Shown here piece by piece: positions 1-24,785 of a DNA stretch of 64,000 nucleotides. The stretch is from Eledone cirrhosa. Its lineage: Eukaryota. The position numbers and the translations under genes are program-made. Position 1 is the stretch's first letter; the number at the start of each line of letters is the position of its first letter. The notes under the pieces are model-generated. The model was not told the DNA's origin and made no database searches. It worked only from the letters and a program-made list of their open reading frames with translations. The stretch covers positions 5,642,001-5,706,000 of the forward strand of contig OZ024742.1 in NCBI GenBank assembly GCA_964016885.1, read 5' to 3'.

Positions 1-3000
1 GTAACAACAACAACAATAGCAACAGTAATAACAACAACAACAGCAACAGTAACAACAACAAGAGCAACAGTAATAACAACAACAACTGCAACAGTAACAA
101 CAACAACAACAACAGCAACAGTAATAACAACAACAACAGCAACAGTAATAACAACAACAGCAACAGTAATAACAACACAACAGCAACAGTAACAACAACA
201 ACAACAGCAACAGTAATAACAACAACAATAGCAACAGTAATAACAACTACAACAGCAACAGTAATAACAACAACAACAGCAACAGTAACAACAACAACAA
301 CAGCAACAGTAACAACAACAACAATAGCAACAGTAACAACAACAACAACAACAGGAAACAGTAATAACAACAACAGCAACAGTAACAACAACAACAACAG
401 CAACAATAATAACAACAACAACTGCAACAGTAACAACAACAACAACAGCAACAGTAATAACAACAACAACAGCAACAGTAATAACAACAACAACAGCCAC
501 AGTAACAACAACAACAACAGCAACAGTAATAACAACAACAACAGCAACAGTAACAACAACAAGAACAGCAACAGTAACAACAACAACAACAGCAACAGTA
601 ATAACAACAATAACAGCAACAGTAATAACAACAACAACAGCAACAGTAATAACAACAACAACAGCAACCGTAACAACAACAACAACAACAGCAACAGTAA
701 CAACAACAACAACAACAACAGCAACAGTAATAACAACAACAACAGCAACAGTAATAACAACAACAACAGCAACAGTAATAACAACAACCACAACAGTAAT
801 AACAACAACAACAGCAACAGTAACAACAACAACCACAACAGTAATAACAACAACAACAGCAACAGTAACAACAACAACAGCAACAGTAATAACAACAACA
901 ACAGCAACAGTAATAACAACAACAACAGCAACCGTAACAACAACAACAACAACAGCAACAGTAACAACAACAACAACAACAACAGCAACAGTAATAACAA
1001 CAACAACAGCAACAGTAATAACAACAACAACAGCAACAGTAATAACAACAACCACAACAGTAATAACAACAACAACAGCAACAGTAACAACAACAACCAC
1101 AACAGTAATAACAACAACAACAGCAACAGTAACAACAACAACAGCAACAGTAATAACAACAACAACAGCAACAGTAACAACAACAACAACAGCAACAGTA
1201 ACAACAACAACAACAGCAACAGTAGTAACAACAACAACAGCAACAGTAACAACAACAACAACAGCAACAGTAACAACAACAACAACAACAACAGTAATAA
1301 CAACAACAACAGCAACAGTAACAACAACAACAACAACAGCAACAGTAACAACAACAACAACAGCAACAGTAATAACAACAACAACAGTAACAGTAACAAC
1401 AAAAACAACAGCAACAGTAATAACAACAACAACAGCAACAGTAACAACAACAACAACAGCAACAGTAATAACAACAGCAACAGTAACAGTAACAACAAAA
1501 ACAACAGCAACAGTAACAACAACAACAACAGCAACAGTAACAACAACTACAACAGCAACAGTAATAACAACAACAACAACAGCAACAGTAACAACAACAA
1601 CAACAGCAACAGTAATAACAACTACAACAGCAACAGTAATAACAACAACAACAGCAACAGTAACAACAACTACAACAGCAACAGTAATAACAACAACAAC
1701 AGCAACAGTAATAACAACAACAACAGCAACAGTAACAACAACAACACAACAGCAACAGTAATAACAACAACAACAGCAATAGTAACAACAACAACAGCAA
1801 CAGTAATAACAACAACAACAGCAACAGTAACAACAACAACAACAGCAACAGTAATAACAACAACAACAGCAACAGTAATAACAACAACAACAGCAACAGT
1901 AACAACAACAACAACAGCAACAACAACAACAACAACAACAACAACAGCAACAACAACAACAGCAACAGTAATAACAACAACAACAGCAACAGTAATAACA
2001 ACTACAACAGCAACAGTAATAACAACAACAACTGCAACAGTAACAACAACAACAATAGCAACAGTAATAACAACAACAGCAACAGCAATAACAACAACAA
2101 CAGCAACAGTAATAACAACAACAACAGCAACAGTAACAACAACAACAGCAACAGTAATAACAACAACAACAGCAACAGTAATAACAACAACAACAGCAAC
2201 AGTAATAACAACAACAACAGAAACAGTAATTACAACAACAACAGCAACAGTAATAACAACAACAACAACAGCAACAGTAATAACAACAGCAACAGCAACA
2301 GTAATAACAACAACAACAGCAACAGTAATAACAACAACAACAGCAACAGTAATAACAACAACAACAGCAACAGTAATAACAACAACAACAGAAACAGTAA
2401 TTACAACAACAACAGAAACATTAATAACAACAACAACTGCAACAGTAATAACAACAACAACAGCAACAGCAACAGTAATAACAACAACAACAGCAACAGT
2501 AACAACAACAGCAACAGTAACAGTAATAACAACAACAACTGCAACAGTAATAACAACAACAACAGCAACAGCAACAGTAACAACAACAACAACAGCAACA
2601 GTAACAACAACAACAACAGTAACAGTAATAACAACAACAACAGCAACAGTAATAACAACAACAACAGTAACAGTAATAACAACAACAACAGCAACAGTAA
2701 CAACAACAACAATAGCAACAGTAACAACAACAACAACAGGAAACAGTAATAACAACAACAACAACAGCAACAATAATAACAACAACAACTGCAACAGTAA
2801 CAACAACAACAGCAACAGTAATAACAACAACAACAGCAACAGTAATAACAACAACAACAGCCACAGTAACAACAACAACAACAGCAACAGTAATAACAAC
2901 AACAACAGCAACAGTAATAACAACAACAACAGCAACAGTAACAACAACAACAACAGCAACAGTAATAACAACAACAACAGCAACAGTAATAACAACAACA

Positions 3001-4921
3001 ACAGCAACAGTAACAGCAACAACAACAACAGCAACAGTAACAACAACAACAACAGCAACAGTAATAACAACAACAACAGTAACAGTAAAAACAACAACAA
3101 CAGCAACAGTAATAACAACAACAACAGCAACAGTAATAACAACAACAACAGTAACAGTAAAAACAACAACAACAGCAACAGTAATAACAACAACAACAGC
3201 AACAGTAACAACAACAACAACAGCAACAGTAGTAACAACAACAACAGCAACAGTAATAACAACAACAACAGCAACAGTAACAACAACAACAACAGCAACA
3301 GTAGTAACAACAACAACAGCAACAGTAACAACAACAACAACAGCAACAGTAATAACAACAACAACAGCAACAGTAATAACAACAACAACAGCAACAGTAA
3401 CAACAACAACAACAGCAACAGTAATAACAACAACAACAGCAACAGTAACAACAACAAGAACAGCAACTGTAACAACAACAACAACAGCAACAGTAATAAC
3501 AACAATAACAGCAACAGTAATAACAACAACAACAGCAACAGTAATAACAACAACAACAGCAACCGTAACAACAACAACAACAACAGCAACAGTAACAACA
3601 ACAACAACAACAACAGCAACAGTAATAACAACAACAACAGCAACAGTAATAACAACAACAACAGCAACAGTAATAACAACAACCACAACAGTAATAACAA
3701 CAACAACAGCAACAGTAACAACAACAACCACAACAGTAATAACAACAACAACAGCAACAGTAACAACAACAACAGCAACAGTAATAACAACAACAACAGC
3801 AACAGTAATAACAACAACAACAGCAACCGTAACAACAACAACAACAACAGCAACAGTAACAACAACAACAACAACAACAGCAACAGTAATAACAACAACA
3901 ACAGCAACAGTAATAACAACAACCACAACAGTAATAACAACAACAACAGCAACAGTAACAACAACAACAGCAACAGTAATAACAACAACAACAGCAACAG
4001 TAACAACAACAACAACAGCAACAGTAACAACAACAACAACAGCAACAGTAGTAACAACAACAACAGCAACAGTAACAACAACAACAACAGCAACAGTAAT
4101 AACAACAACAACAACAACAGTAATAACAACAACAACAACAACAGCAACAGTAACAACAACAACAGCAACAGTAATAACAACAACAACAGCAACAGTAACA
4201 ACAACAACAACAGCAACAGTAACAACAACAACAACAGCAACAGTAGTAACAACAACAACAGCAACAGTAACAACAACAACAACAGCAACAGTAATAACAA
4301 CAACAACAACAACAGTAATAACAACAACAACAACAACAGCAACAGTAACAACAACAACAACAGCAACAGTAATAACAACAACAACAGTAACAGTAACAAC
4401 AAAAACAACAGCAACAGTAATAACAACAACAACAGCAACAGTAACAACAACAACAACAGCAACATTAATAACAACAGCAACAGTAACAGTAACAACAAAA
4501 ACAACAGCAACAGTAACAACAACAACAACAGCAACAGTAACAACAACTACAACAGCAACAGTAATAACAACAACAACAACAGCAACAGTAACAACAACAA
4601 CAACAGCAACAGTAATAACAACTACAACAGCAACAGTAATAACAACAACAACAGCAACAGTAACAACAACAACAACAGCAACAGTAATAACAACAACAAC
4701 AGCAACAGTAATAACAACAACAACAGCAACAGTAACAACAACAACACAACAGCAACAGTAATAACAACAACAACAGCAATAGTAACAACAACAACAGCAA
4801 CAGTAATAACAACAACAACAGCAACAGTAACAACAACAACAACAGCAACAGTAATAACAACAACAACAGCAACAGTAATAACAACAACAACAGCAACAGT
4901 AACAACAACAACAACAACAGC

Positions 4922-4952
<31 letters not shown>

Positions 4953-7900
4953 GCAACAACAACAACAGCAACAGTAATAACAACAACAACAGCAACAGTA
5001 ATAACAACTACAACAGCAACAGTAATAACAACAACAACAGCAACAGTAACAACAACAACAACAGCAACAGTAACAACAACAACAACAGCAACAGTAATAA
5101 CAACAACAACTGCAACAGTAACAACAACAACAATAGCAACAGTAATAACAACAACAGCAACAGCAATAACAACAACAACAGCAACAATAATAACAACAAC
5201 AACAGCAACAGTAACAACAACAACAGCAACAGTAATAACAACAACAACAGCAACAGTAATAACAACAACAACAGCAACAGTAATAACAACAACAACAGAA
5301 ACAGTAATTACAACAACAACAGCAACAGTAATAACAACAACAACAGCAACAGTAATAACAACAGCAACAGTAACATTAATAACAACAACAACTGCAACAG
5401 TAATAACAACAACAACAGCAACAGCAACAGTAATAACAACAACAACAGCAACAGTAACAACAACAGCAACAGTAACAGTAATAACAACAACAACTGCAAC
5501 AGTAATAACAACAACAACAGCAACAGCAACAGTAACAACAACAACAACAGCAACAGTAACAACAACAACAACAGTAACAGTAATAACAACAACAACAGCA
5601 ACAGTAATAACAACAACAACAGTAACAGTAATAACAACAACAACAGCAACAGTAATAACAACAACAACAGCAACAGCAACAGTAATAACAACAACAACAG
5701 CAACAGTAACAACAACAACAACAGTAACAGTAATAACAACAACAACAGCAACAGTAATAACAACAACAACAGTAACAGTAAAAACAACAACAACAGCAAC
5801 AGTTATAACAACAACAACAGCAACAGTAACAACAACAACAACAACAGCAACAGTAATAACAACAACAACAGCAACAGTAATAACAACAACAACAGCAACA
5901 GTAATAACAACAACAACAGCAACAGTAATAACAACAACAACAGCAACAGTAATAACAACAGCAACAGCAACAGTAACAACAACAACAACAGCAACAGTAA
6001 CAACAACAACAATAGCAACAGTAATAACAACAACAACAGCAACAGTAACAACAACAACAACAGCAGCAGTAACAACAACAACAACAGCAACACTAATAAC
6101 AACAACAACAGCAACAGTAACAACAACAACAACAGCAACAGTAACAACAACAACAATAGCAACAGTAATAACAACAACAACAGCAACAGTAACAACAACA
6201 ACAACAGCAACAGTAACAACAACAACAACAGCAACAGTAATAACAACAACAACAGCAACAGTAACAACAACAACAACAGCAACAGTAATAGCAACAACAA
6301 CAACAACAGTAATAACGACAACAACAGCAACAGTAACAACAACAACAACAACAGCAACAGTAACAACAACAACAACAGCAACAGTAATAACAACAACAAC
6401 AGTAACAGTAAAAACAACAACAACAGCAACAGTAATAACAACAACAACAGCAACAGTAATAACAACAACAACAGCAACCGTAACAACAACAACAACAGCA
6501 ACAGTAACAACAACAACAACAACAACAGCAACAGTAATAACAACAACAACAGCAACAGTAATAACAACAACAACAGCAACAGTAATAACAACAACAACAG
6601 CAACAGTAATAACAACAACCACAACAACAGTAACAACAACAACAACAGCAACAGTAATAACAACAACAACAGCAACAGTAATAACAACAACAACAGCAAC
6701 CGTAACAACAACAACAACAGCAACAGTAACAACAACAACAACAACAACAGCAACAGTAATAACAACAACAACAGCAACAGTAATAACAACAACAACAGCA
6801 ACAGTAATAACAACAACAACAGCAACAGTAATAACAACAACCACAACAACAGTAACAACAACAACAACAGCAACAGTAATAACAACAATAACAGCAACAG
6901 TAATAACAACAACAACAGCAACAGTAATAACAACAACCACAACAACAGTAACAACAACAACAACAGCAACAGTAATAACAACAACAACAGCAACAGTAAT
7001 AACAGCAACAACAGCAACAGTAATAACAACAACAACAGCAACAGTAATAACAACAACGACAGCAACCGTAACAACAACAACAACAACAACAACAGCAACA
7101 GTAATAACAACAACAACAGCAACAGTAATAACAACAACAACAGCAACAGTAATAACAACAACAACAGCAACAGTAACAACAACAACAACAACAACAGTAA
7201 CAACAACAACAACAGCCACAGTAATAACAACAACAACAGCAACAGTAACAACAACAACAACAGCAACTGTAATAACAACAACAACAACAACAACAGTAAT
7301 AACAACAACAACAGCAACAGTAACAACAACAACAACAACAGCAACAGTAACAACAACAACAACAGCAACAGTAATAACAACAACAACAGTAACAGTAACA
7401 ACAAAAACAACAGCAACAGTAATAACAACAACAACAGCAACAGTAACAACAACAACAACAGCAACAGTAACAACAACTACAACAGCAACAGTAATAACAA
7501 CAACAACAGCAACAGTAATAACAACAACAACAGCAACAGTAATAACAACAACAACAACAGCAACAGTAACAACAACAACAACAGCAACAGTAACAACAAC
7601 AACAACAGCAACAGTAACAACAACAACAACAGCAACAGTAATAACAACAACAACAGCAACAGTAATAACAACAACAACAGCAACAGCAACAACAAAAACA
7701 ACAGCAACAGTAATAACAACTACAACAGCAGCAGTAACAACAAAAACAACATCAACAGTAATAACAACTACAACAGCAACAGTAACAACAACAACAGCAA
7801 CAGTAATAACAAAAACAACAGCAACAGTAACAAAAACTACAAAAGCAACAGTTATAACAACAACAGCAACAGTAACAACAACTACAACACAACAGCAACA

Positions 7901-9490
7901 GTAATAACAACAACAACAGCAACAGTAATAACAACAGCAACAGTAACAACAACTACAACAGCAACAGTAATAACAACAACAACAGCAACAGTAATAACAA
8001 CAACAACAGCAACAGTAATAACAACAGCAACAGTAACAACAACAACTACAACAGCAACAACAACAACAACAACAACAACAGCAACCGTAACAACAACAAC
8101 AACAGCAACAGTAACAACAACAACAACAGCAACAGTAATAACAACTACAACAGCAACAGTAATAACAACAACAACAGCAACAGTAACAACAACAACAACA
8201 GCAACAGTAACAACAACAACAATAGCAACAGTAATAACAACAACAACAGCAACAGTAATAACAACAACAACAGCAACAGTAATAACAACAACAACAGCAA
8301 CAGTAATAACAACAACAACAGCAACAGTAATTACAACAACAACAGCAACAGTAATAACAACAACAATAGCAACAGTAATAACAACTACAACAGCAACAGT
8401 AATAACAACAACAACAGCAACAGTAATAACAACAACAACTGCAACAGTAACAACAACAGCAACAGTAATAACAACAACAACAGAAACAGTAATTACAACA
8501 ACAACAGCAACAGTAATAACAACAACAACAGCAACGGTAATAACAACAACAGCAACAGTAATAACAACAACAACAGCAACAGTAACAACAACAACAACAA
8601 CAACAACAATAACAACAACAACAGTAGCAACAATAACAGCAACAGTACCAACAACAGCAACAGTAACAACAACAGCAACAGTAACAACAACTACAACAGC
8701 AACAGTAATAACAACAACAGCAACCGTAACAACAACAACAACAGCAACAGTAACAACAACAGCAGCAACAGTAATAACAACAACAACAGCAACAGTAACA
8801 ACAACAACAACAGCAACAGTAATAACAACAACAACAACAGCAACAGTAACAACAACAACAACAACAACAGTAATAACAACAACAACAGCAACAGTAACAA
8901 CAACAACAGCAACAGTAATAACAACAACAACAGCAACAGTAACAACAACAACAGCAACAGTAACAACAACAACAACAGCAACAGTAACAACAACAACAAC
9001 AGCAACAGTAATAACAACAACAACAGCAACAGTAACAACAACAACAACAGCAACAGTAACAACAACAACAACAACAACAGCAACAGTAACAACAACAACA
9101 ACAGCAACAGTAACAACAACAACAACAGCAACAGTAATAACAACAACAGCAACAGTAATAACAACAACAACAGCAACAGTAACAACAACAACAACAGCAA
9201 CAATAACAACAACAACAACAGCAACAGTAATAACAACAACAATAGCAACAGTAACAACAACAACAACAGCAACAGTAATAACAACAACAACAGCAACAGT
9301 AATAACAACAACAACAGCAACAGTAACAACAACAACAGCAACAATAACAACAACAACAACAGCAACAGTAATAACAACAACAATAGCAACAGTAACAACA
9401 ACAGCAACAGTAATAACAACAACAACAGCAACAGTAACAACAACAACAACAACAGCAACAGTAACAACAACAACAACAGCAACAACAATA
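1..9490. repeat. Compound trinucleotide satellite, consensus unit ~ACAGCAACAGTAATAACAACAACAACA (24-30 bp, variable AAC number)
   Basis: Continuous run built almost only of AAC/AGC/AGT/AAT triplets. The poly-L, poly-V and poly-C minus-strand ORFs are its translations. It is truncated by the window start. Confidence 0.97.
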
Positions 9491-10041
9491 ACTTTATTTC
9501 ATGTCAACAATAACAACAATAACCACAAAAGTAATAAAATTATCAGCTACATTAACACCCACCTTTGCCAAAAAAAACAAACAAAAGAAAGGAAAGAAAG
9601 GAAAACAAAGGAAAACAAAAGAAATCAAACAAAAAACACCTTAATCAGCCAATGTAAAAGTTGACCCATTCAAGCTTGCGTGACAAAGGGTCTTTTCGTT
9701 GAAGGAGGGACTCCCGGCATTTGCCAAATAGCTGTCATTATAAAATTGGTAGGATTTTGTCGGGAAGAAGAGATTTTCTTCACTTTAGTGTGATTTTCTA
9801 GATGGAGCTTCATTTCCTTCGGCCTTTCAGTCGAGTTGACATATTACAAATACTAAATATGTCAGCAAACATAGCCACACTGACAGATATGCAGAAAACA
9901 CTATCGTGGCCATTTTGTCTCGTGTCGGCTGCTTATAATTCTAACAGACGTTTTCTATTTCGTTTTTTCTTTACATTTTCTTCAGATTTTTAAAAGATAT
10001 TTACTTAAACATTCTCATTTTTTTCGTCTGTGTCACACTTA

Positions 10042-10044
<3 letters not shown>

Positions 10045-10110
<66 letters not shown>
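10045..10110. repeat. (TA)n microsatellite flanking the Penelope-like element
   Basis: Pure AT dinucleotide run directly abutting the element terminus at 10111. Confidence 0.97.
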
Positions 10111-10112
<2 letters not shown>

Positions 10113-10981
10113 CGAAGGAAATGTGGTAAGGAACCAGGTGGACCATAACGCACCAAAGTACTCAATACTTAGGGTAGTAGAGTGGGTAATAGGAACTAGT
10201 AGGACCCCGACGGCTGAGCTCAAGCCGTTTCGACTGCTAATTCTGGACTAAATGAAAATTTTTATCCTGGTATATGAATAGCCGAGCTTCTCAGGGGGTA
10301 ATTCCATATATGGTAAAAGTGATTGTCACAAGGATTGGTCAAAAGTTTGTTGTTGAGACACATAATTCTATCATGGAAATTTGTGGAAGGAAGGGGTAGC
10401 TAAACCTGCCAGTAGAAGAAAGAGGGAGAGGGGGTAGAGGAAACCCAGTCGTGCGTTGATACTGCCAACTACAGCAGGGCAGGAGGTCAAGCAAGTATAC
10501 TAGGGAGGATGAGGGGGAGGAAGTCGAAACAATAAGTAAAACAATATGGAGTAAATATATAGAAGAATACCGAGAATGTTAAAGGAATAAAAAAAATAAT
10601 TTCTGGTTACTATTCCCTAACGACAGTCATCAAGTCTCTCACTGGTACTGCTAAACTATAGAAAAGTTTACTAGGTGGGACGAAATTATAATGAGACCAT
10701 TTTAAGAGTTAGTAGTAATCAACCGAGTATATCTTACGGTGACAGGTTTCTAGCCTAGGCACAAGGCCAGCAACCACCCAGTGCAAAAATTAAACTAATA
10801 CGAAATAATAATTCAGAATCCCGAAATACTATCTCTAAGGGTGCCGCTACGATACAAAAATTCTAGTGCAAACTACATAAATGCTCGTACGAAGTATATG
10901 AAAAATTTGATACGGAAAATTAATTCAGAATCACTTGTCTACCCCTCCCCCCTGTCATTATGGGGTTTGAGGGCGAGGTAA
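10111..10981 (-). repeat. Inverted copy of the family A 3' region including an ~80-bp tail
   Basis: Reverse complement matches 12732-12780 joined (GTG microhomology) to 13184-13991, then continues ~80 bp (10111-10190) beyond the point where the forward copy stops. Confidence 0.9.
10204..10299 (-). ncRNA. Type I hammerhead-like ribozyme, family A (variant core CUGAGAA, long stem II)
   Basis: Minus strand reads ACCCC-CTGAGAA-gctcGGCTA...TAGC(A/C)GTC-GAAA-CGGCT tgagctc AGCCG-TC^GGGGT: stem I ACCCC/GGGGT, GAAAC...GUC triplet, palindromic TGAGCTCA in stem III. Confidence 0.7.
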
Positions 10982-12808
10982 CCTCTACTTCGTCAACCCC
11001 GAAAGATACCACACACTGATCAGGAGCAGCCTAAACTCCACCTATAAAAAGGCTAACCACTCTTGCATCGAGGACATGAATCGAGATGGACAACAAATTA
11101 CCTCCAGCCTCGGGGTCGCCGACCGCACGGAACCCCTTGACCCACGGACACCCTACTTCACACTGAAGGACCACAAATCCGATTTCGACCGTAAACCTTC
11201 TATCAGGCTTATAAACCCAACGAAGTCCGACATAGGGAGAATCAGCAAAAAAATCGTAGACCACGTTATACCAAAAGTTAAGCAACACGCCAGACTTAGC
11301 CTATGGGTCAACACCCAGGAAGTAATCTCATGGTTCAGCAATATGGAGGACAAACGAGACACAAAATTCATCCAGTTTGACATAGAGAGTTACTATGCTT
11401 CAATTACCTTACCGCTACTTACGGCTGCCTTGGACTTTGCCGAAACATTTGCGCCCGTCACCGACCAGGAAAGAAACATCATCCTCCACGCCAGGAAGAC
11501 AGTCCTACTCTTCGACAACTCCAAATGGATAAAGAGAGCTCCCGATTCACCCTTCGACGTCAGTATGGGCGCGACGGATTCGGCTGAGGTCACAGATCTT
11601 ATAGGATTATTCCTACTAGTTAAACTCACCGATATGTTTCCTGCATTCGGCGGTGGATTGTACCGTGATGATGGGCTCCTTACCCTTAAAGGGTACAACC
11701 CCAGTAGTACAGACCGGGTCCGTAAACAATTAATCAGCTTCTTCCGCGACTGGGGATTTAAAATAACCCTACAAACGTCCCTGACCCGAGTAAACTTCCT
11801 GGACGTCACCCTTGACCTCGATAATGATCTGTACTACCCATACAGGAAACCCAACGACAACCTGCACTACATCCACCGCCGGTCAAACTATCCTAGGAAC
11901 ATCACCAATAACCTGGTTAAAAACATCTCCCTCCGCATATCTCGTTTGTCCGCTAATGAGCAGATATTCGAGGAACATGCGCCTTATTACAATCAGGCCC
12001 TCAAGCGGAGTGGTTTCCGGGAGGAAATATCCTACTGTCCAACTTCCATTAGCAGAACCAGCAGGCGACACCGCCGCTCACGCAATGTAACATGGTTCAA
12101 TCCTCCCCACAACGCCGAGGTGACAACTCCTATCGGGAAAATCATCTTTAGGCTCATCGAAAAAGACTTCCCACTACAACACCGCTACCACAACATAATT
12201 AACGAAAATACCATTAAACTCTCCTACAGCACCACACCAAACTTTGCACAAAACATCGTCTCCTCTAACAACAAAAAACTCAACCCCTATTGAAGAAATA
12301 ACCTAAATAGCAGTGGAGAGCCGACCAGGAGGTGCAACTGTCCTGGTGGATCATTTGCCCCCTCGACAACAGATGCAGAGATCGTAATGTGATCTACCAG
12401 TGCAACGTGAGGACGGACACCTCCAACAAAGCTTATATAGAATTAACCGCATGTGACTTCAAGACCCGGCTATACCAACACAGACATACCTTCCGAAACC
12501 CGACCCGGCGTCACGCCACCACACTTTCGGGCCACATCTGGGACCTCAAGGATAGCAATATTACCTATGATCTCACTTGGAGCTTACTGTCCAGAGCCAA
12601 CTCTTACACGGAAGGACACCGTCCGTGCAATTTATGCTCGGGGGAAACTTTACAAATGCTGTTTTCGACGGACCAACTCCTAAACAAGAAAGACGAACTG
12701 GTAACTGCATACAAACAGAGATTGCGTAGGACTTACCTCGCCCTCAAACCCCATAATGACCCGGGGGGTTTAGACAAGTGCTGTACACCCCACTTGCCGA
12801 CTTTGTAA
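10977..12808 (+). pseudogene. Disrupted Penelope (Naiad-type) reverse transcriptase - GIY-YIG endonuclease ORF
   Basis: Frame is open from ~10977 (NLYFVNPERYHTL...). RT motifs RLINPTKSDIGRISK, FIQFDIESYY, FDVSMGATDSAE, GLYRDDGL, FLDVTLDL, WFNPP. In-frame TGA at 12291, then CNC; a frameshift at ~12352 leads into CPLDNRC..VIYQC..YIELT..FKTRLYQH..CNLC..LLNKKDEL. The YIG motif reads YIE. Confidence 0.9.
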
Positions 12809-13893
12809 TGGGTAACCCCTGCTTGCAAAGGTAGACGTAAGATCTTTTATATCTTTTTATCGCTTCCTCTATATTTCCTTCTTCCCCCCATCCCTTCCTA
12901 GTCTTTCCACCCAGTCCTCTTTCTTTGTCGTCGTCCTTTTCACTTTCTCGCCCACCCGAGGCAGCCCCTCGGTCCTTTGTAGCCTCAGTACCCCCACCAC
13001 CTTCCCCTATTCTATGATAGCATTGGCCGACTCCGCTTTTTATAGCAGATGTGATAGACCCCGGATACTTGCTTTCTTATCCGATGGCTGCCCCCTTTCC
13101 GTGCTTTCTATATTTCTTAGTGGTATCTTTGCTTTAATTTCTCGTATATCAGTATTTATTTTTTGGGGTGGTGGGGTGGGTGGGTGATTCTGAATTAATT
13201 TTCCGTCTCAAATTTTTCATATACTTCGTACGAGCATTTATGTAGTTTGCACTAGAATTTTTGTATCGTAGCGGCACCATTAGAGATAGTATTAGTATTC
13301 ATTTTCGGGATTCTGAATTATTATTTCGTATTAGTTTATTTTTTGCACTGGGTGGTTGTTGGCCTTGTACCTAGGGTAGAAACAATTATTTCGTATTAAT
13401 CTCGGGACTCTGAATTATTATTTCGTGGTAGATTCTTTAGTATTTTGCCCACCCCCCCACTTGTTGACCTGTCACCGTAAGATATACTCGGTTGATTACT
13501 ACTAACTCTTTCGTCCCACCTAGTAAACTTTTCTATAGTTTAGCAGTACCAGTGAGAGACTTGATGACTGTCGTTAGGGAATAGTAACCAGAAATTATTT
13601 TTTTTATACCTTTAACATTCTCGGTATTCTTCTATATATTTACTCCATATTGGTTTACTTATTGTTTCGACTTCCTCCCTCTCATCCTCCCTAGTATACT
13701 TGCTTGACCTCCTGCCCTGCTGTAGTTGGCAGTATCAACGCACGACTGGGTTTCCTCCACCCCCTCTCCCTCTTTCTTCTACTGGCAGGTTCAGCTACCC
13801 CTTCCTTCCACAAATTGCCATGATAGAATAATGTGTCTCAACAACAAACTTTTGACCAATCCTTGTGACAATCACTTTACCATATATGGAATT

Positions 13894-13977
13894 ACTCCCT
13901 GAGAAGCTCGGCTATTCATATACCAGGATAAAAATTTTCATTTAGTCCAGAATTAGCTTGAGCTCAGCCGTCGGGGT
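13894..13977 (+). ncRNA. Family A hammerhead remnant, GAAA core deleted
   Basis: Same motif as 10204-10299 but lacking 12 nt (AGTCGAAACGGC) between GC microhomologies at ~13957. Confidence 0.6.
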
Positions 13978-14225
13978 CCTACTCGTTCCTATATATATAT
14001 ATACATACTGAGGTGTCGGTAAACAACCAACATATACTCAATATATATACACACACATATATATATGTATATATATATACATACATGCACACATATATAT
14101 ATGTACGTATGGATCTACCGAACATTTATTATAATGCTTGGTTTGTTTGTAAACAAACATCCCGAATTAAGCCGTACAGTATTTAGCAACCATCGTTGCC
14201 CTTTTTGTTCAACACTGACAAAGGA

Positions 14226-14268
14226 ACGATGTACTAGTTTCAAGCTTATTAGCTATCGTCAGCACCGT
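14226..14268 (-). ncRNA. Minimal type I hammerhead ribozyme (family E, left arm)
   Basis: Minus strand: ACGGTG-CTGACGA-tAGCTaataAGCTt-GAAA-CTAG-TA^CATCGT; canonical core, G-U pair in stem I. Confidence 0.88.
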
Positions 14269-14486
14269 ATACCTTCCTGCCAGATGATTGAACGTCTGAA
14301 AGTATATACTTTCCTTATGCATATTAACGGCTGAGCAGCATAATTTGCATATTATTTTTTCCATTTATCGTTTTCGGTGCGCCCGGCCGACTAACTCACT
14401 CGATAAGCAAATTAGGATGCTCAGCCGTTAATATGCCTAAGGAAAGTATATACTTTCAGACGTTAAATCATCTGACAGAAAGGTAT

Positions 14487-14529
14487 ACGATGCTGACGAT
14501 AGCTAATAAGCTTGAAACTAGTACATCGT
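14487..14529 (+). ncRNA. Minimal type I hammerhead ribozyme (family E, right arm)
   Basis: ACGATG-CTGACGA-tAGCTaataAGCTt-GAAA-CTAG-TA^CATCGT: perfect 6-bp stem I, CUGANGA/GAAA core, palindromic ACTAGT in place of stem III, GUA triplet. Confidence 0.9.
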
Positions 14530-14815
14530 TCCTTTGTCAGTGTTGAACAAAAGGGCAACGGTGGTTGCTAAACTCTGTACGGCTTAATTCGGGATGTTTG
14601 TTTACAAACAAACCAAGCATTATAATAAATGTTCGGTAAATCCATACGTACATATATATATATGTGTGCATGTATGTATATATATATACATACTACTGTA
14701 CGTCTGTATACATATATGTATGCACCTATACATATTTATATTTAAGTAACAGTCGTACTAAGAGTGAGAAATGAAATTTCGTTTCATTTTTTTCCATTTA
14801 TGCATATATATATAT

Positions 14816-14997
14816 AACAAAGGAATTGTGGTAAGGAACCAGATGGACCATAACGCACCAGAGTACTCAATACTTAGGGTAGTAGAGTGGGAAATAGGAA
14901 AATGTATGACCCCGACGGCTGAGCTCAAGCCGTTTCGACGGCTATTTTAGCCGTCGAAACGGCTTGAACTCGGCCGTCAGAGTCAAATTTTTTCCTA
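14816..14997 (-). mobile_element. Short family A insertion: tail plus fold-back hairpin
   Basis: 14816-14944 matches 10111-10239. It then folds back at GGCTA-TTT-TAGCC (~14946) and ends at TTCCTA before (TA)n. Confidence 0.88.
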
Positions 14998-15178
14998 TAT
15001 ATATATTGAGTATATATTGGTTGTCTACCGACACCTCAGTATGCATATATATATATATATTAATAAAAGGAATTCCAACTTTGTCTGATTTACTCGTTTT
15101 ATTTATTTACAATCCTTTAAATTTATATTGGTTTTAGAATGAAATAGCATGGTAGAGTATTAAATGTTAAGTGTTGAT

Positions 15179-15217
15179 TGAACAAGTACTTTCATGCTTT
15201 CGCAATCTTCAGGTTCA
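15179..15217 (-). ncRNA. Minimal type I hammerhead ribozyme (family B, intact core)
   Basis: Minus strand: TGAAC-CTGAAGA-tTGCgaaaGCAt-GAAA-GTAC-TT^GTTCA; palindromic AAGTACTT, GNRA-capped stem II. Confidence 0.88.
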
Positions 15218-15290
15218 TATTGTGTGGTGACAATCAAGTTTGCAATTTTCAACAGTTGAAAATTGCAAACTTGACTGTCACCACACAATA

Positions 15291-15329
15291 TGAACCTGAA
15301 GATTGCGAAAGCATAAAAGTACTTGTTCA
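15291..15329 (+). ncRNA. Family B hammerhead, G12A mutant copy
   Basis: TGAAC-CTGAAGA-TTGCGAAAGCAT-AAAA-GTACTT-GTTCA; GAAA has become AAAA. Confidence 0.7.
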
Positions 15330-15463
15330 ATTAACACTTAACATTTCATTCTAAAACCATTATAAATTTAAAGGATTGTAAATAAATAAAACGAGTAAAT
15401 CAGACAAAGTTGGAATTCCTTTTATTAATATAATCTTCTATACACAATCATACACACCCGTGT

Positions 15464-16256: not shown

Positions 16257-16320
<64 letters not shown>

Positions 16321-16982
16321 TGCTAGGATCCTGACGGCTGAGTTCCGGACATTTCGGCAGCTAGATTCGTTAGGATATACATACATACATACATACATAC
16401 ATACATACATACATACATAGATACATACATACAAAGATACATATATACATATATACATACACACATACATACAGACATGTATACATATATACATATATGG
16501 TGGCTGCCAACTCGTTTTCGAGTACGGCCACTACTTTATATCCATGTAGGAGAACCCCCACCGATGCGCTAAACGAGTGTGACTTTTTAGTCCAGCCAAC
16601 GACTTGAAACTCTGGTACAAACACTACACTTGTGACAATTATTGACACACAGTGCTGGGCCCATGGTACCATGTGACGACAAGTGCAGAGAGATCTCCAG
16701 ATATAAAGCAATGCCTGTGCCGTGAAGCTTTTATAGTGAGCAAAGGCACTGCACAAAGCCAGTCCCACTCTCTTAACCAAGATGATATTTACCAAAAAGA
16801 AGAACAAGTCAACATCATTGGATACCATCAGGGTTGCAGGTGTTATATCAGAGTTTTCCTTCTCCTAGACTGCCTTGACAAAGGCTAAGGGGTCATCTCT
16901 CCCGGAGGGGTCATCTCTCCCGGGCATATATACATACACACATACATACACACAAAGATACATATATACATATATACATACA

Positions 16983-18083: not shown

Positions 18084-18262
18084 TATATATATATATATAT
18101 ATAATATATAACGGAGGAAATGTGGTAAGGAACCAGGTGGATCATAACGCACCAAAGTACTCAATACTTAGGGTAGTAGAGTGGGTAATAGGAACGAGTA
18201 GGACCCCGACGGCTGATCTCAAGCCGTTTCGACGGCTAATTCTGGACTGAATTAGCCGTCGA

Positions 18263-18510
18263 TACTTGTTCTAAGTATCCCATTACAGAGTTCGCGTAAA
18301 CGGGAGCAAACTTCGTTCCCATCGCTGTGCCTCTAATTTGGATGTAATTCTTTCCATTGAATAAGAGTGTGTTGTTTTCCAGAATAAGTTTAACTGCGTC
18401 TAATAGAAATGGCGCTGTGAATCTGATGGGAATCACTTCTCTTTGTTTTTCCACCCAGTATTTAACCGCCTTTATTCCTAAATCATGTGTAATGTTGGTG
18501 TAAAGGCTTA
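18263..18510 (-). pseudogene. Inverted fragment of the family B RT
   Basis: Minus strand encodes SLYTNITHDLGIKAVKYWVEK...LILENN..FNGKNYIQIRGTAMGTKFAPVYANSVMGYLEQ. The last ~60 bp duplicate 18512-18573 in opposite orientation. Confidence 0.9.
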
Positions 18511-18513
18511 CCA

Positions 18514-19651
18514 GCGATGGGAACGAAGTTTGCTCCCGTTTACGCGAACTCTGTAATGGGATACTTAGAACAACAACTCTACCAAAAAATAGAGGGAAAA
18601 TATAGTATTGACTTTAGAAAGTACATTGAAAAATCTTGGAAGAGATACCTTGGATGAGTTCAATATCCTCCTGAATAACCTACACCCATCTCTCCAATTC
18701 ACAAAAGAGATGAGTAGGACCAAATTACCATTCCTAGATATAATGATAATCAAAAACGACACCACCATTACCACGGATATATATTATAAACACACAGACA
18801 CCCATCAATATCTGAATTTTAAGTCGTGCCATCCACCTCATACAAAACGCAACGTCCCATACTGCCTAGCCAGAAGAATTTGTACCATTGTAGAAGATAC
18901 GAATACCAGGTACAAACGCCTAACAGAACTAAGAGAATTTTTGCTCAAACAAAAATACCCATCTCTACTTATAGAAAATGGCATACAGCAGGCTATAAAA
19001 ATACCTATACAACAACTTAGGACAACCCAAGGAAGAAGAAACCAAGAACTGGTCATACCATTTATAATGACACACAACCCATGTCACCAGAATATCTTCA
19101 ACACTGCCAAAGCAAACCTACCGATCATTGCTCAAAGTAATGAATTAAAAGGCTTAATCACAGATCGATCTTTGACTCTTAGTAAAAGACAGCCAAAAAA
19201 TTTGAAGCAATTACTAACAAAAGCAAAGTTTGACCTTAACAACAAAGCCCAATCATTCACTGTATCTAAATGCAATGATAGTCGATGCGGCACATGTCAA
19301 TCCATACACGCCGGTCAATATATGAAAACAAAAACTGGAAAAATATTCACAAATGCAAATATCAACTGCAAAAGCAGAAATCTAATTTACTGCATTAAAT
19401 GCCCGAATTGTGAAGAACTATATGTCGGTCAAACTGGAAATGCACTATCGGAACGTGCACGAGTACACCGTCAGCAAATCAGAGACCCAAATGTCCGTCA
19501 GATACCCCTAAGTAACCATCTAACAACATGTGGTCAGGGAATATTTATAATATTCTCATTCTACAAATTACACAGCCCAAGTGAAATCAAAAGAAAAATC
19601 AAAGAAAAGAATTTTATTGATAAATTCAAACCCAAGCTAAATGAACAATAA
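18514..19651 (+). pseudogene. Family B RT C-terminal half, Cys-rich linker and GIY-YIG endonuclease
   Basis: AMGTKFAPVYAN...WKRYL, then a frameshifting deletion at ~18650 removes the expected catalytic DD. Continues LPFLDI, YYKHTDTHQYLNFKSCHP, CNDSRCGTC, CKSRNLIYCIKCPNCEELYVGQT..LSER...H, KEKNFI..FKPKLN. Confidence 0.92.
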
Positions 19652-19890: not shown

Positions 19891-20018
19891 ACCAATCAGC
19901 TTTAGTAATTCAGTGAAACTACACACCGATTGGTCGAAAAACAGTTTGCAAGATTTAGCATTCTGGAGCCACTTTTCACTGTATATAAGGTACAAAATTT
20001 ACCCATCTCATTACAGTT
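19891..20018 (+). promoter_or_regulatory. Putative Pol II promoter in the family B pLTR (CCAAT boxes, TATA, Inr-like CAGTT)
   Basis: CCAATCA at 19892, ATTGG at ~19929, TATATAAG at 19982, CAGTT at 20014 (~32 bp after the TATA). Motif match only. Confidence 0.45.
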
Positions 20019-20051
20019 GAAAATTGCAAACTTGACTGTCACCACATATTA

Positions 20052-20090
20052 TAAATCTGAAGATTGCAAAAGCATGAAAGTACTTGTTCA
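20052..20090 (+). ncRNA. Family B hammerhead ribozyme in the element 3' end
   Basis: TAAAT-CTGAAGA-TTGCaaaaGCAT-GAAA-GTACTT-GTTCA; core intact, stem I weakened. Confidence 0.78.
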
Positions 20091-20206
20091 ATTAACACTT
20101 AGAATTTAATATTCTATCATACTATTTCATTATAATACCATTATAAATTTTAAAGGATTGTAAATAAAACGAGTAAATCGGACAAAGTTGGAATTCCTCT
20201 TATTAA

Positions 20207-24270: not shown

Positions 24271-24348
24271 TATTAGGTCTTCAAGTATGAAATTTGTAGA
24301 AATTTGTAGAAAAAAAACAAATTTCTACAAATTTCATACTTGACGACT

Positions 24349-24354
<6 letters not shown>
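24271..24354. repeat. Small fold-back palindrome within (TA)n
   Basis: GTCTTCAAGTATGAAATTTGTAGAAATTTGT ... ACAAATTTCTACAAATTTCATACTTGACGAC around a short A-rich loop. Confidence 0.8.
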
Positions 24355-24625: not shown

Positions 24626-24666
<41 letters not shown>

Positions 24667-24671
<5 letters not shown>

Positions 24672-24785
24672 AACCAGTAAGACCCCGGGGTCTTACTGGT
24701 TCCTATTACCCACTCTACTACCTCAAGTATTGAGTACTTTGGTGCGTTATGGTCCACCTGGTTCCTTACCACATTTCCTTCGTTA
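24667..24785 (+). mobile_element. Minimal family A insertion: perfect 20-bp-arm palindrome plus tail
   Basis: ATAGGAACCAGTAAGACCCC|GGGGTCTTACTGGTTCCTAT followed by the tail (reverse complement of 10111-10190); (TA)n on both sides. Confidence 0.92.

Follow-up and report, generated by a model that had tools for sequence, protein, structure and literature searches.

Known Penelope-like insertions and the insert at 24667-24785

The closest described systems are the inverted, 5'-truncated insertions with a 'tail' that are formed by EN+ Penelope-like elements (PLEs). As far as the accessible parts of the published descriptions go, these insertions share with the family analyzed here (family A) a pseudo-LTR (pLTR) and a hammerhead, an inverted copy joined at the 5' end, a tail restricted to one side, a (TA)n target and a promoter in the pLTR (PMC8557442, PMC2377424). 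According to the same parts of these sources, the EN+ PLE tail has 30 to 40 nt and the truncations are random, whereas family A has a tail of about 80 nt and joints that appear to fall on two defined RNA 5' ends. Furthermore, unlike the hammerheads described there, that of family A has a stable stem III and a loop II of about 35 nt holding TATA- and initiator-like motifs. In the accessible text of one of these studies, the role of the hammerhead in endonuclease-bearing PLEs is called unclear (PMC8557442).

Three other systems are related in part, as judged from the accessible sections of the corresponding reports. In the Anolis element Poseidon PAc, like in family A, the tail is set by two fixed internal sites of initiation, extension takes place on both target strands and the target is AT-rich; however, ribozyme cleavage was dispensable in vitro and those sections record no reads ending at the cut, whereas about 1.4% of the genomic copies of family A end at the predicted cut (PMC11167929). 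R2 elements with HDV-like ribozymes also mirror a self-cleavage site in their genomic 5' junctions, but ribozyme and element class are different, R2 normally uses the cut RNA as template and its insertions are single-armed (PMC3774820). Finally, non-LTR retrozymes are short, non-coding, hammerhead-linked and PLE-related, like the insert described below, but they are tandem units that keep the ribozyme, whereas the insert is inverted and has lost ribozyme and promoter (PMC7229834; bioRxiv 10.64898/2026.07.22.740005). Within the coverage of a full-text literature search, which mostly excluded subscription journals, we found no paper in which genomic joints of PLEs were mapped to the cut of a hammerhead. 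The family A motifs were absent from one supplement file of PMC8557442, the hammerhead table of which is possibly located elsewhere. The element class is known; new within the literature searched would be the footprint of likely in vivo hammerhead cleavage combined with twin priming.

The window, the whole stretch of 64,000 nucleotides of Eledone cirrhosa DNA that was analyzed, contains an insert of 119 bases inside a (TA)n tract. Its positions were numbered relative to the predicted hammerhead cut, +1 being the first G after GUC^. The insert has the following parts:

24630..24666, no strand: left part of the (TA)n target tract; a shorter (TA)n follows after 24785, and a target duplication is indistinguishable within the tract
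24667..24686, minus strand: short arm, an inverted copy of +1..+20 past the predicted cut; its outer end is the fixed +20 site of family A
24687..24785, plus strand: long arm, +1..+99 (the ribozyme 3' product through the PLE 'tail'), carrying the subfamily marker CTTACT

A sequence check revealed a perfect palindrome axis at 24686/24687, which was the sole axis across 24680-24692. Positions 24686-24785 matched three family copies (10209-10110, 18208-18109 and 14914-14815) at 89-96%, and the match begins at the GTC^GGGG site with an ambiguity of 1 nt. The first-pass annotation had described a tail from GGGGTC onward plus a perfect inverted copy of it joined at 24686/24687. Axis and start site were confirmed, while the inverted part turned out to comprise only 20 nt (+1..+20) and not the whole tail. 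The 12-mer palindrome of the joint was found at 148 sites in the genome compared to 15 for a control, showing that it is not due to chance, and 14 of the 15 palindrome sites retrieved had the same architecture as the insert. Since the insert is inverted and lacks all hammerhead core boxes, it does not consist of the tandem units with a complete hammerhead that characterize non-LTR retrozymes. We conclude that the insert is a minimal two-armed copy (hereafter mini) of a Penelope-like retrotransposon, both arms of which stop at the predicted hammerhead cut. An assembly artefact was considered and appears untenable, given that the outer ends are fixed and that fillers and subfamily letters vary among loci.

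Family A and its hammerhead

Family A represents the pLTR of a PLE with Hydra-clade motifs, and its 23-nt tail word occurs in 34,216 exact copies in the 3.0-Gb genome. The copies in the window and their parts are as follows:

10110..10300, minus strand: long arm of the large copy of family A, holding a full type I hammerhead (CUGAGAA core with C3·A8 at 10294-10288, GAAA at 10231-10228)
10249 (initiator-like A) and 10280-10273 (TATA-like), minus strand: motifs inside hammerhead loop II of the large copy
10971..12808, plus strand: 5'-truncated, frameshifted ORF of the autonomous element, with RT (YRDD, DKT) plus a GIY-YIG-type part at the C-terminus
13509..13992, plus strand: short-arm pLTR belonging to the large copy; it stops at +20 in (TA)n and has lost the GAAA stretch
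14815..14998, no strand: older two-armed family A copy, with the joint about 33 nt upstream of the cut
18109..18262, minus strand: family A copy, the long arm of which reaches about -42 and is followed by an inverted remnant

In the large copy (10110-13992), inverted arms flank the broken RT/GIY-YIG ORF, and the cut in its long arm is predicted between 10209 and 10208. Pfam gave no match for either piece of the ORF at 10971..12808, and a PDB search with the RT piece returned nothing relevant. A natural copy (L379) has a 794-aa open frame with YRDD and a GIY-YIG-type C-terminus, as read by eye, and look-alikes in the atlas at 0.94-0.97 carry HTH_animal/RVT_1 on part of the members. RT and C-terminal GIY-YIG thus lie in one ORF, as in EN+ PLEs. 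The partial tandem arrangement with pLTRs was also found: at 11 of 29 loci selected for the ORF, the tail is continued by the 5' region and ORF of a next unit.

According to the accessible part of its definition, the Hydra clade has DKT instead of DKG, a CxCX5C linker, CxxC and CxH around E and N, a (TA)n target, an RWK motif and a length under 3 kb (PMC8557442). In family A, we detected DKT in 29 of 29 regex matches (the third residue was not printed apart, and every printed match reads DKT), CxCX5C in 10 of 22, the third C being replaced by F in the other 12, as well as CxxC, CxH and (TA)n targets. These motifs and targets fit the Hydra clade; RWR was also seen, and the unit is about 3.3 kb long in L379.

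Long arms end at about +99, and the short arms of nearly all two-armed copies end at +20, as does the arm at 13992. Such ends would be expected if initiation took place at two fixed internal sites, as described, in the part accessible, for the Anolis element (PMC11167929). In the tail at three loci (L360, L368 and L369), an upstream ORF of 13 codons (+64 to +105) overlaps the +99 end, and the first ATG of the long frame is located near +195. A short, GC-richer insert in (TA)n at 16320-16375 of the window resembles an old family A short arm.

The predicted hammerhead is of type I, with stem I (four G-C pairs plus an extension), a core box, a long stem II, GAAA, a 6-bp stem III and GUC. In the subfamily of the mini, the core boxes read UUGANAA / GAAA / GUC with U3-A8, and G10.1-C11.1, A15.1-U16.1 and the NUH site are present. 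In the 100 core matches listed first, out of 2,720, UUGANAA was the commonest core, position 7 was free (G/U/A/C) within a fixed core and C occupied position 3 in about a third. U3-A8 is a covariant previously described in PLE hammerheads, as far as the accessible text goes (PMC4209133), while the window's own full copy carries C3·A8, which breaks the 3-8 pair. The suggestion of the first-pass annotation that a non-canonical core does the cutting is therefore not supported: the subfamily of the mini has the known U3-A8, and the C3·A8 core seen in the window belongs to a subfamily giving fewer minis.

The three-stem fold lay 0.8-2.4 kcal/mol above the minimum free energy (MFE) in 6 of the 8 copies tested, among the U3 copies tested in 5 of 6, and 5.3 and 5.9 kcal/mol above it in the other two copies. 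In young subfamilies, the MFE structure was a competing fold, and the copies were too similar to one another for covariation. An Rfam scan gave no hammerhead match, only microsatellite-driven miRNA matches below their thresholds, and fragments without the 5' side of stem I were no more stable than shuffles.

Joints upstream of and at the predicted cut

About three quarters of the first 100 tail copies were two-armed, and most of their joints were located at -35 to -45 relative to the cut. Position -41 is the A of YAGTC, an initiator-like motif, and 29-31 nt upstream of it is a TATA-like word. At -42, 6,645 arms had a purine in contrast to the C or T of the template, with a G:A ratio of 87:13; about 10 of 25 inspected G cases could equally derive from the opposite arm. 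At loci not selected on the base at -42, 8 G and 4 A rows were left unexplained, some rows representing the same locus. The extra G at -42 is suggestive of a cap signal, and -41 is likely to be a capped transcription start inside loop II of the ribozyme.

At the cut itself, a genome search revealed 376 matches with 0-10 free bases between +4 anchors. Hand counts of the first 100 matches listed in genome order showed 47 in which the two arms stop exactly at +1, separated by no bases or by A/T alone, and about 10 more with other fillers. Thirteen were GAC/GTC joins, readable as microhomology or as both arms at -1 plus one base (16 of 100 loci listed in the class with 0-4 fillers). None of the 100 had both arms at +2, +3, +4 or -2. 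By comparison, in an upstream control of about 432 loci, 49 of the 52 loci listed were joined through stem III/GAGCTC self-homology and only 3 had spacers of 0-13, and downstream joints (506 matches) were widely spread. The sharp fold-back peak at GTC^GGGG foreseen by the first-pass annotation was thus found locally: it is one base wide, with hardly any joints at neighboring positions. The peak is minor, since both GGGG arms with 0-4 fillers occur at 277 loci, corresponding to about 1.4% of the insertions of two subfamilies, and the main hotspot lies 35-45 nt upstream.

Asymmetric joints were also counted by hand. With one arm near -40, about 18 of the 100 rows listed had the other arm at the cut, 12 of them ambiguous by one base, and 19, 15 and 13 rows had it at the microhomology positions -3, +4 and -9, respectively; these rows show no dominant peak at the cut, but at most a modest excess.

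A tandem, internally shortened family A copy (L378 242-1290; G000:C2, from 113334600) has a short arm ending at the predicted cut; its long arm extends from +3 across the following unit's 5' region to a second tail. In this single case, the cut may bound a longer template.

Could +1 (or +2) be a minor transcription start, or a pause of the RT at the base of stem III, with no ribozyme cut? The C|G at the joint is a pyrimidine-purine step, a feature shared by many start sites of Pol II, the first position of stem III is -2 and the TATA-like box differs between subfamilies. However, this box is 29-31 nt from -41 and not from +1, and there is little extra G at +1 (extra G or C beside the arms at 4 of 50 loci), unlike at -41. 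Moreover, a hairpin pause predicts ends at -1, whereas joins of two arms at -1 with 0 or 2 fillers were absent among the matches listed. A start or pause at this position is therefore unlikely, and we favor cleavage by the ribozyme.

The two subfamilies provide a natural mutant control. Among full copies, U3-A8 was present in 23 of 24 with the marker CTTACT, the type of the window mini, and C3·A8 in 15 of 21 with CCTACT (29 further copies had another marker or none). Cut-site minis were found at 215 CTTACT and 62 CCTACT loci, and whole-genome counts of background arms were 20,677 and 18,080. The frequency of the cut-site class was 2.1% for CTTACT versus 0.69% for CCTACT, an approximately 3-fold difference (binomial p 1e-16) between subfamilies that also differ in letters of the TATA-like box and promoter and in age, and whose source elements are unweighted by activity. 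The ratio of 0.33 is near the 6/21 expected if cutting were limited to U3-A8, although 62 CCTACT minis exist despite the mostly C3·A8 core. In the upstream control class of hairpin joins, the proportion was about 1:1 (24 CTT, 26 CCT and 2 mixed). An earlier comparison (41:17) against 100 sampled copies from the first 20 Mb of one contig had given no apparent effect; this background was replaced by the whole-genome counts. These data support the view that the peak tracks the integrity of the ribozyme 3-8 pair across subfamilies.

The subfamily data also bear on a DNA-level origin. Palindromes are unstable, and minis could be central deletions of the commoner palindromic copies of about 60 bp, halting at the G/C clamp; in line with this, microhomology joints are common in family A. 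Such deletions would leave unexplained the one-base precision and the 3-fold association with a base of the core that lies about 85 nt upstream and is absent from the short palindromic copies. The control class shows no subfamily bias, and the minis keep clean, fixed outer ends. Central deletion is very improbable.

Proposed twin priming on a cut RNA

We propose, with a probability of roughly 75%, that a ribozyme-cut RNA was reverse transcribed twice, primed from the two nicked strands of the (TA)n target, and that the cDNA ends were then joined. The sequence directly gives the outer ends (+20 and +99), the inner ends (+1), 0-4 filler bases, the (TA)n target and the subfamily bias. The hammerhead would cleave at GUC^G in the germline, and priming would occur at both fixed sites (+20 and +99) on one RNA. 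Each cDNA would then run off the 5' end of the cut RNA with untemplated addition of A/T, and the two cDNA ends would be united, either by end-joining or through mutual template jumping. From a capped transcript, with a start predicted at -41 in loop II, the same route would likely yield the more frequent two-armed copies. A precedent is the PLE protein reported, in the part of the study accessible, to nick and extend both strands from two internal sites (PMC11167929).

The alternative is that the ribozyme cut the RNA, but that a single cDNA snapped back and was copied to +20. The first-pass annotation had favored such a course. Its first half, reverse transcription of the cleavage product to its 5' end, agrees with the peak at GTC^GGGG and the subfamily link, but the subsequent snap-back is at odds with the zero-loop CCCC|GGGG join, with untemplated fillers between complete arms and with the relative reach of the arms. 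Indeed, a loop of 0-1 nt should be unable to self-prime, judging from hairpin geometry. Furthermore, in 49 of 100 copies that a script parsed as two-armed (the other 51 were not so parsed), the short arm extended at least 5 nt further 5' in 12 and the long arm in 9. A short arm overtaking the long arm is impossible if a long cDNA folds back, and +20 is a fixed end in kilobase copies too (13992).

Snap-back joints are a named class for R2, according to the accessible part of PMC11331408, and the hairpin class of the upstream control could be true snap-back. In addition, the subfamily letters are almost always common to both arms of a locus: 33 of 43 were identical, compared to 29% under random pairing, and 2 of the 100 matches listed in the cut-site search were discordant. 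Shared locus-specific letters point to one template for both arms, but they are equally expected from one RNA copied twice. At some loci (L119 and L162), a cap-like base is present on both arms. Two cDNAs primed from nicked strands and running off one RNA end would account for the overreaching short arms, the zero-loop palindromes and the cap-like bases on both arms. Overall, snap-back is very improbable, and we retain twin priming.

The minis show no sign of re-transposition, since they are without promoter and ribozyme and their fillers vary by locus. The earlier idea of a propagating non-autonomous element of about 100 nt is not supported; fillers and subfamily letters that differ by locus are as expected for independent by-products. 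The few hundred minis are likely DNA records of in vivo hammerhead cleavage in germ cells. If so, hundreds of germline insertions on the predicted scissile bond, together with the natural mutant control, would constitute in vivo evidence of ribozyme cutting, and the ribozyme-cut RNA would serve as a template. The joints of family A would provide a testable model for the inverted repeats and tails of PLEs, and ribozyme cuts and start sites in other genomes could be mapped from sequence only.

A broader model is put forward tentatively, and we consider it rather doubtful. Here, the joints would record both RNA 5' ends, the capped start in loop II and the cut 41 nt further on, and the inverted repeats of PLEs would result from priming of the two target strands at two fixed positions on a single RNA. 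Because the primary transcript would start within the ribozyme, pairing might occur between its 5' half and the 3' pLTR half, either of that RNA or of another one, and the transcript would thereby remove its own cap. The C3·A8 subfamily would represent a ribozyme knock-down that kept spreading.

The window contains further inserted and repeated sequences. A second (TA)n-inserted family (family B), with the minimal hammerhead CUGAAGA ... GAAAGUACUU^GUUCA, is present at 15056-15432 and 20013-20200. Symmetric joints at its cut were found in 4 of 36 cases, most others being joined by microhomology, with no clear peak. The copy at 15056-15432 is a two-armed inversion with an axis near 15254. A different PLE-like RT/GIY-YIG ORF (18236-19651; Pfam GIY-YIG, E 7.5e-07) adjoins a family A copy, and its region contains a local 62-nt inversion (18266-18327 / 18512-18573). 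Two more palindromic inserts lie between TA repeats at 14041-14713 (about 670 bp) and 24272-24353 (about 80 bp). Finally, 1-9500 and 25900-64000 consist of a long AAC/AGT-type repeat array and a satellite of approximately 38 kb, in which units of 22 and 24 nt are mixed and the strand skew is strong.
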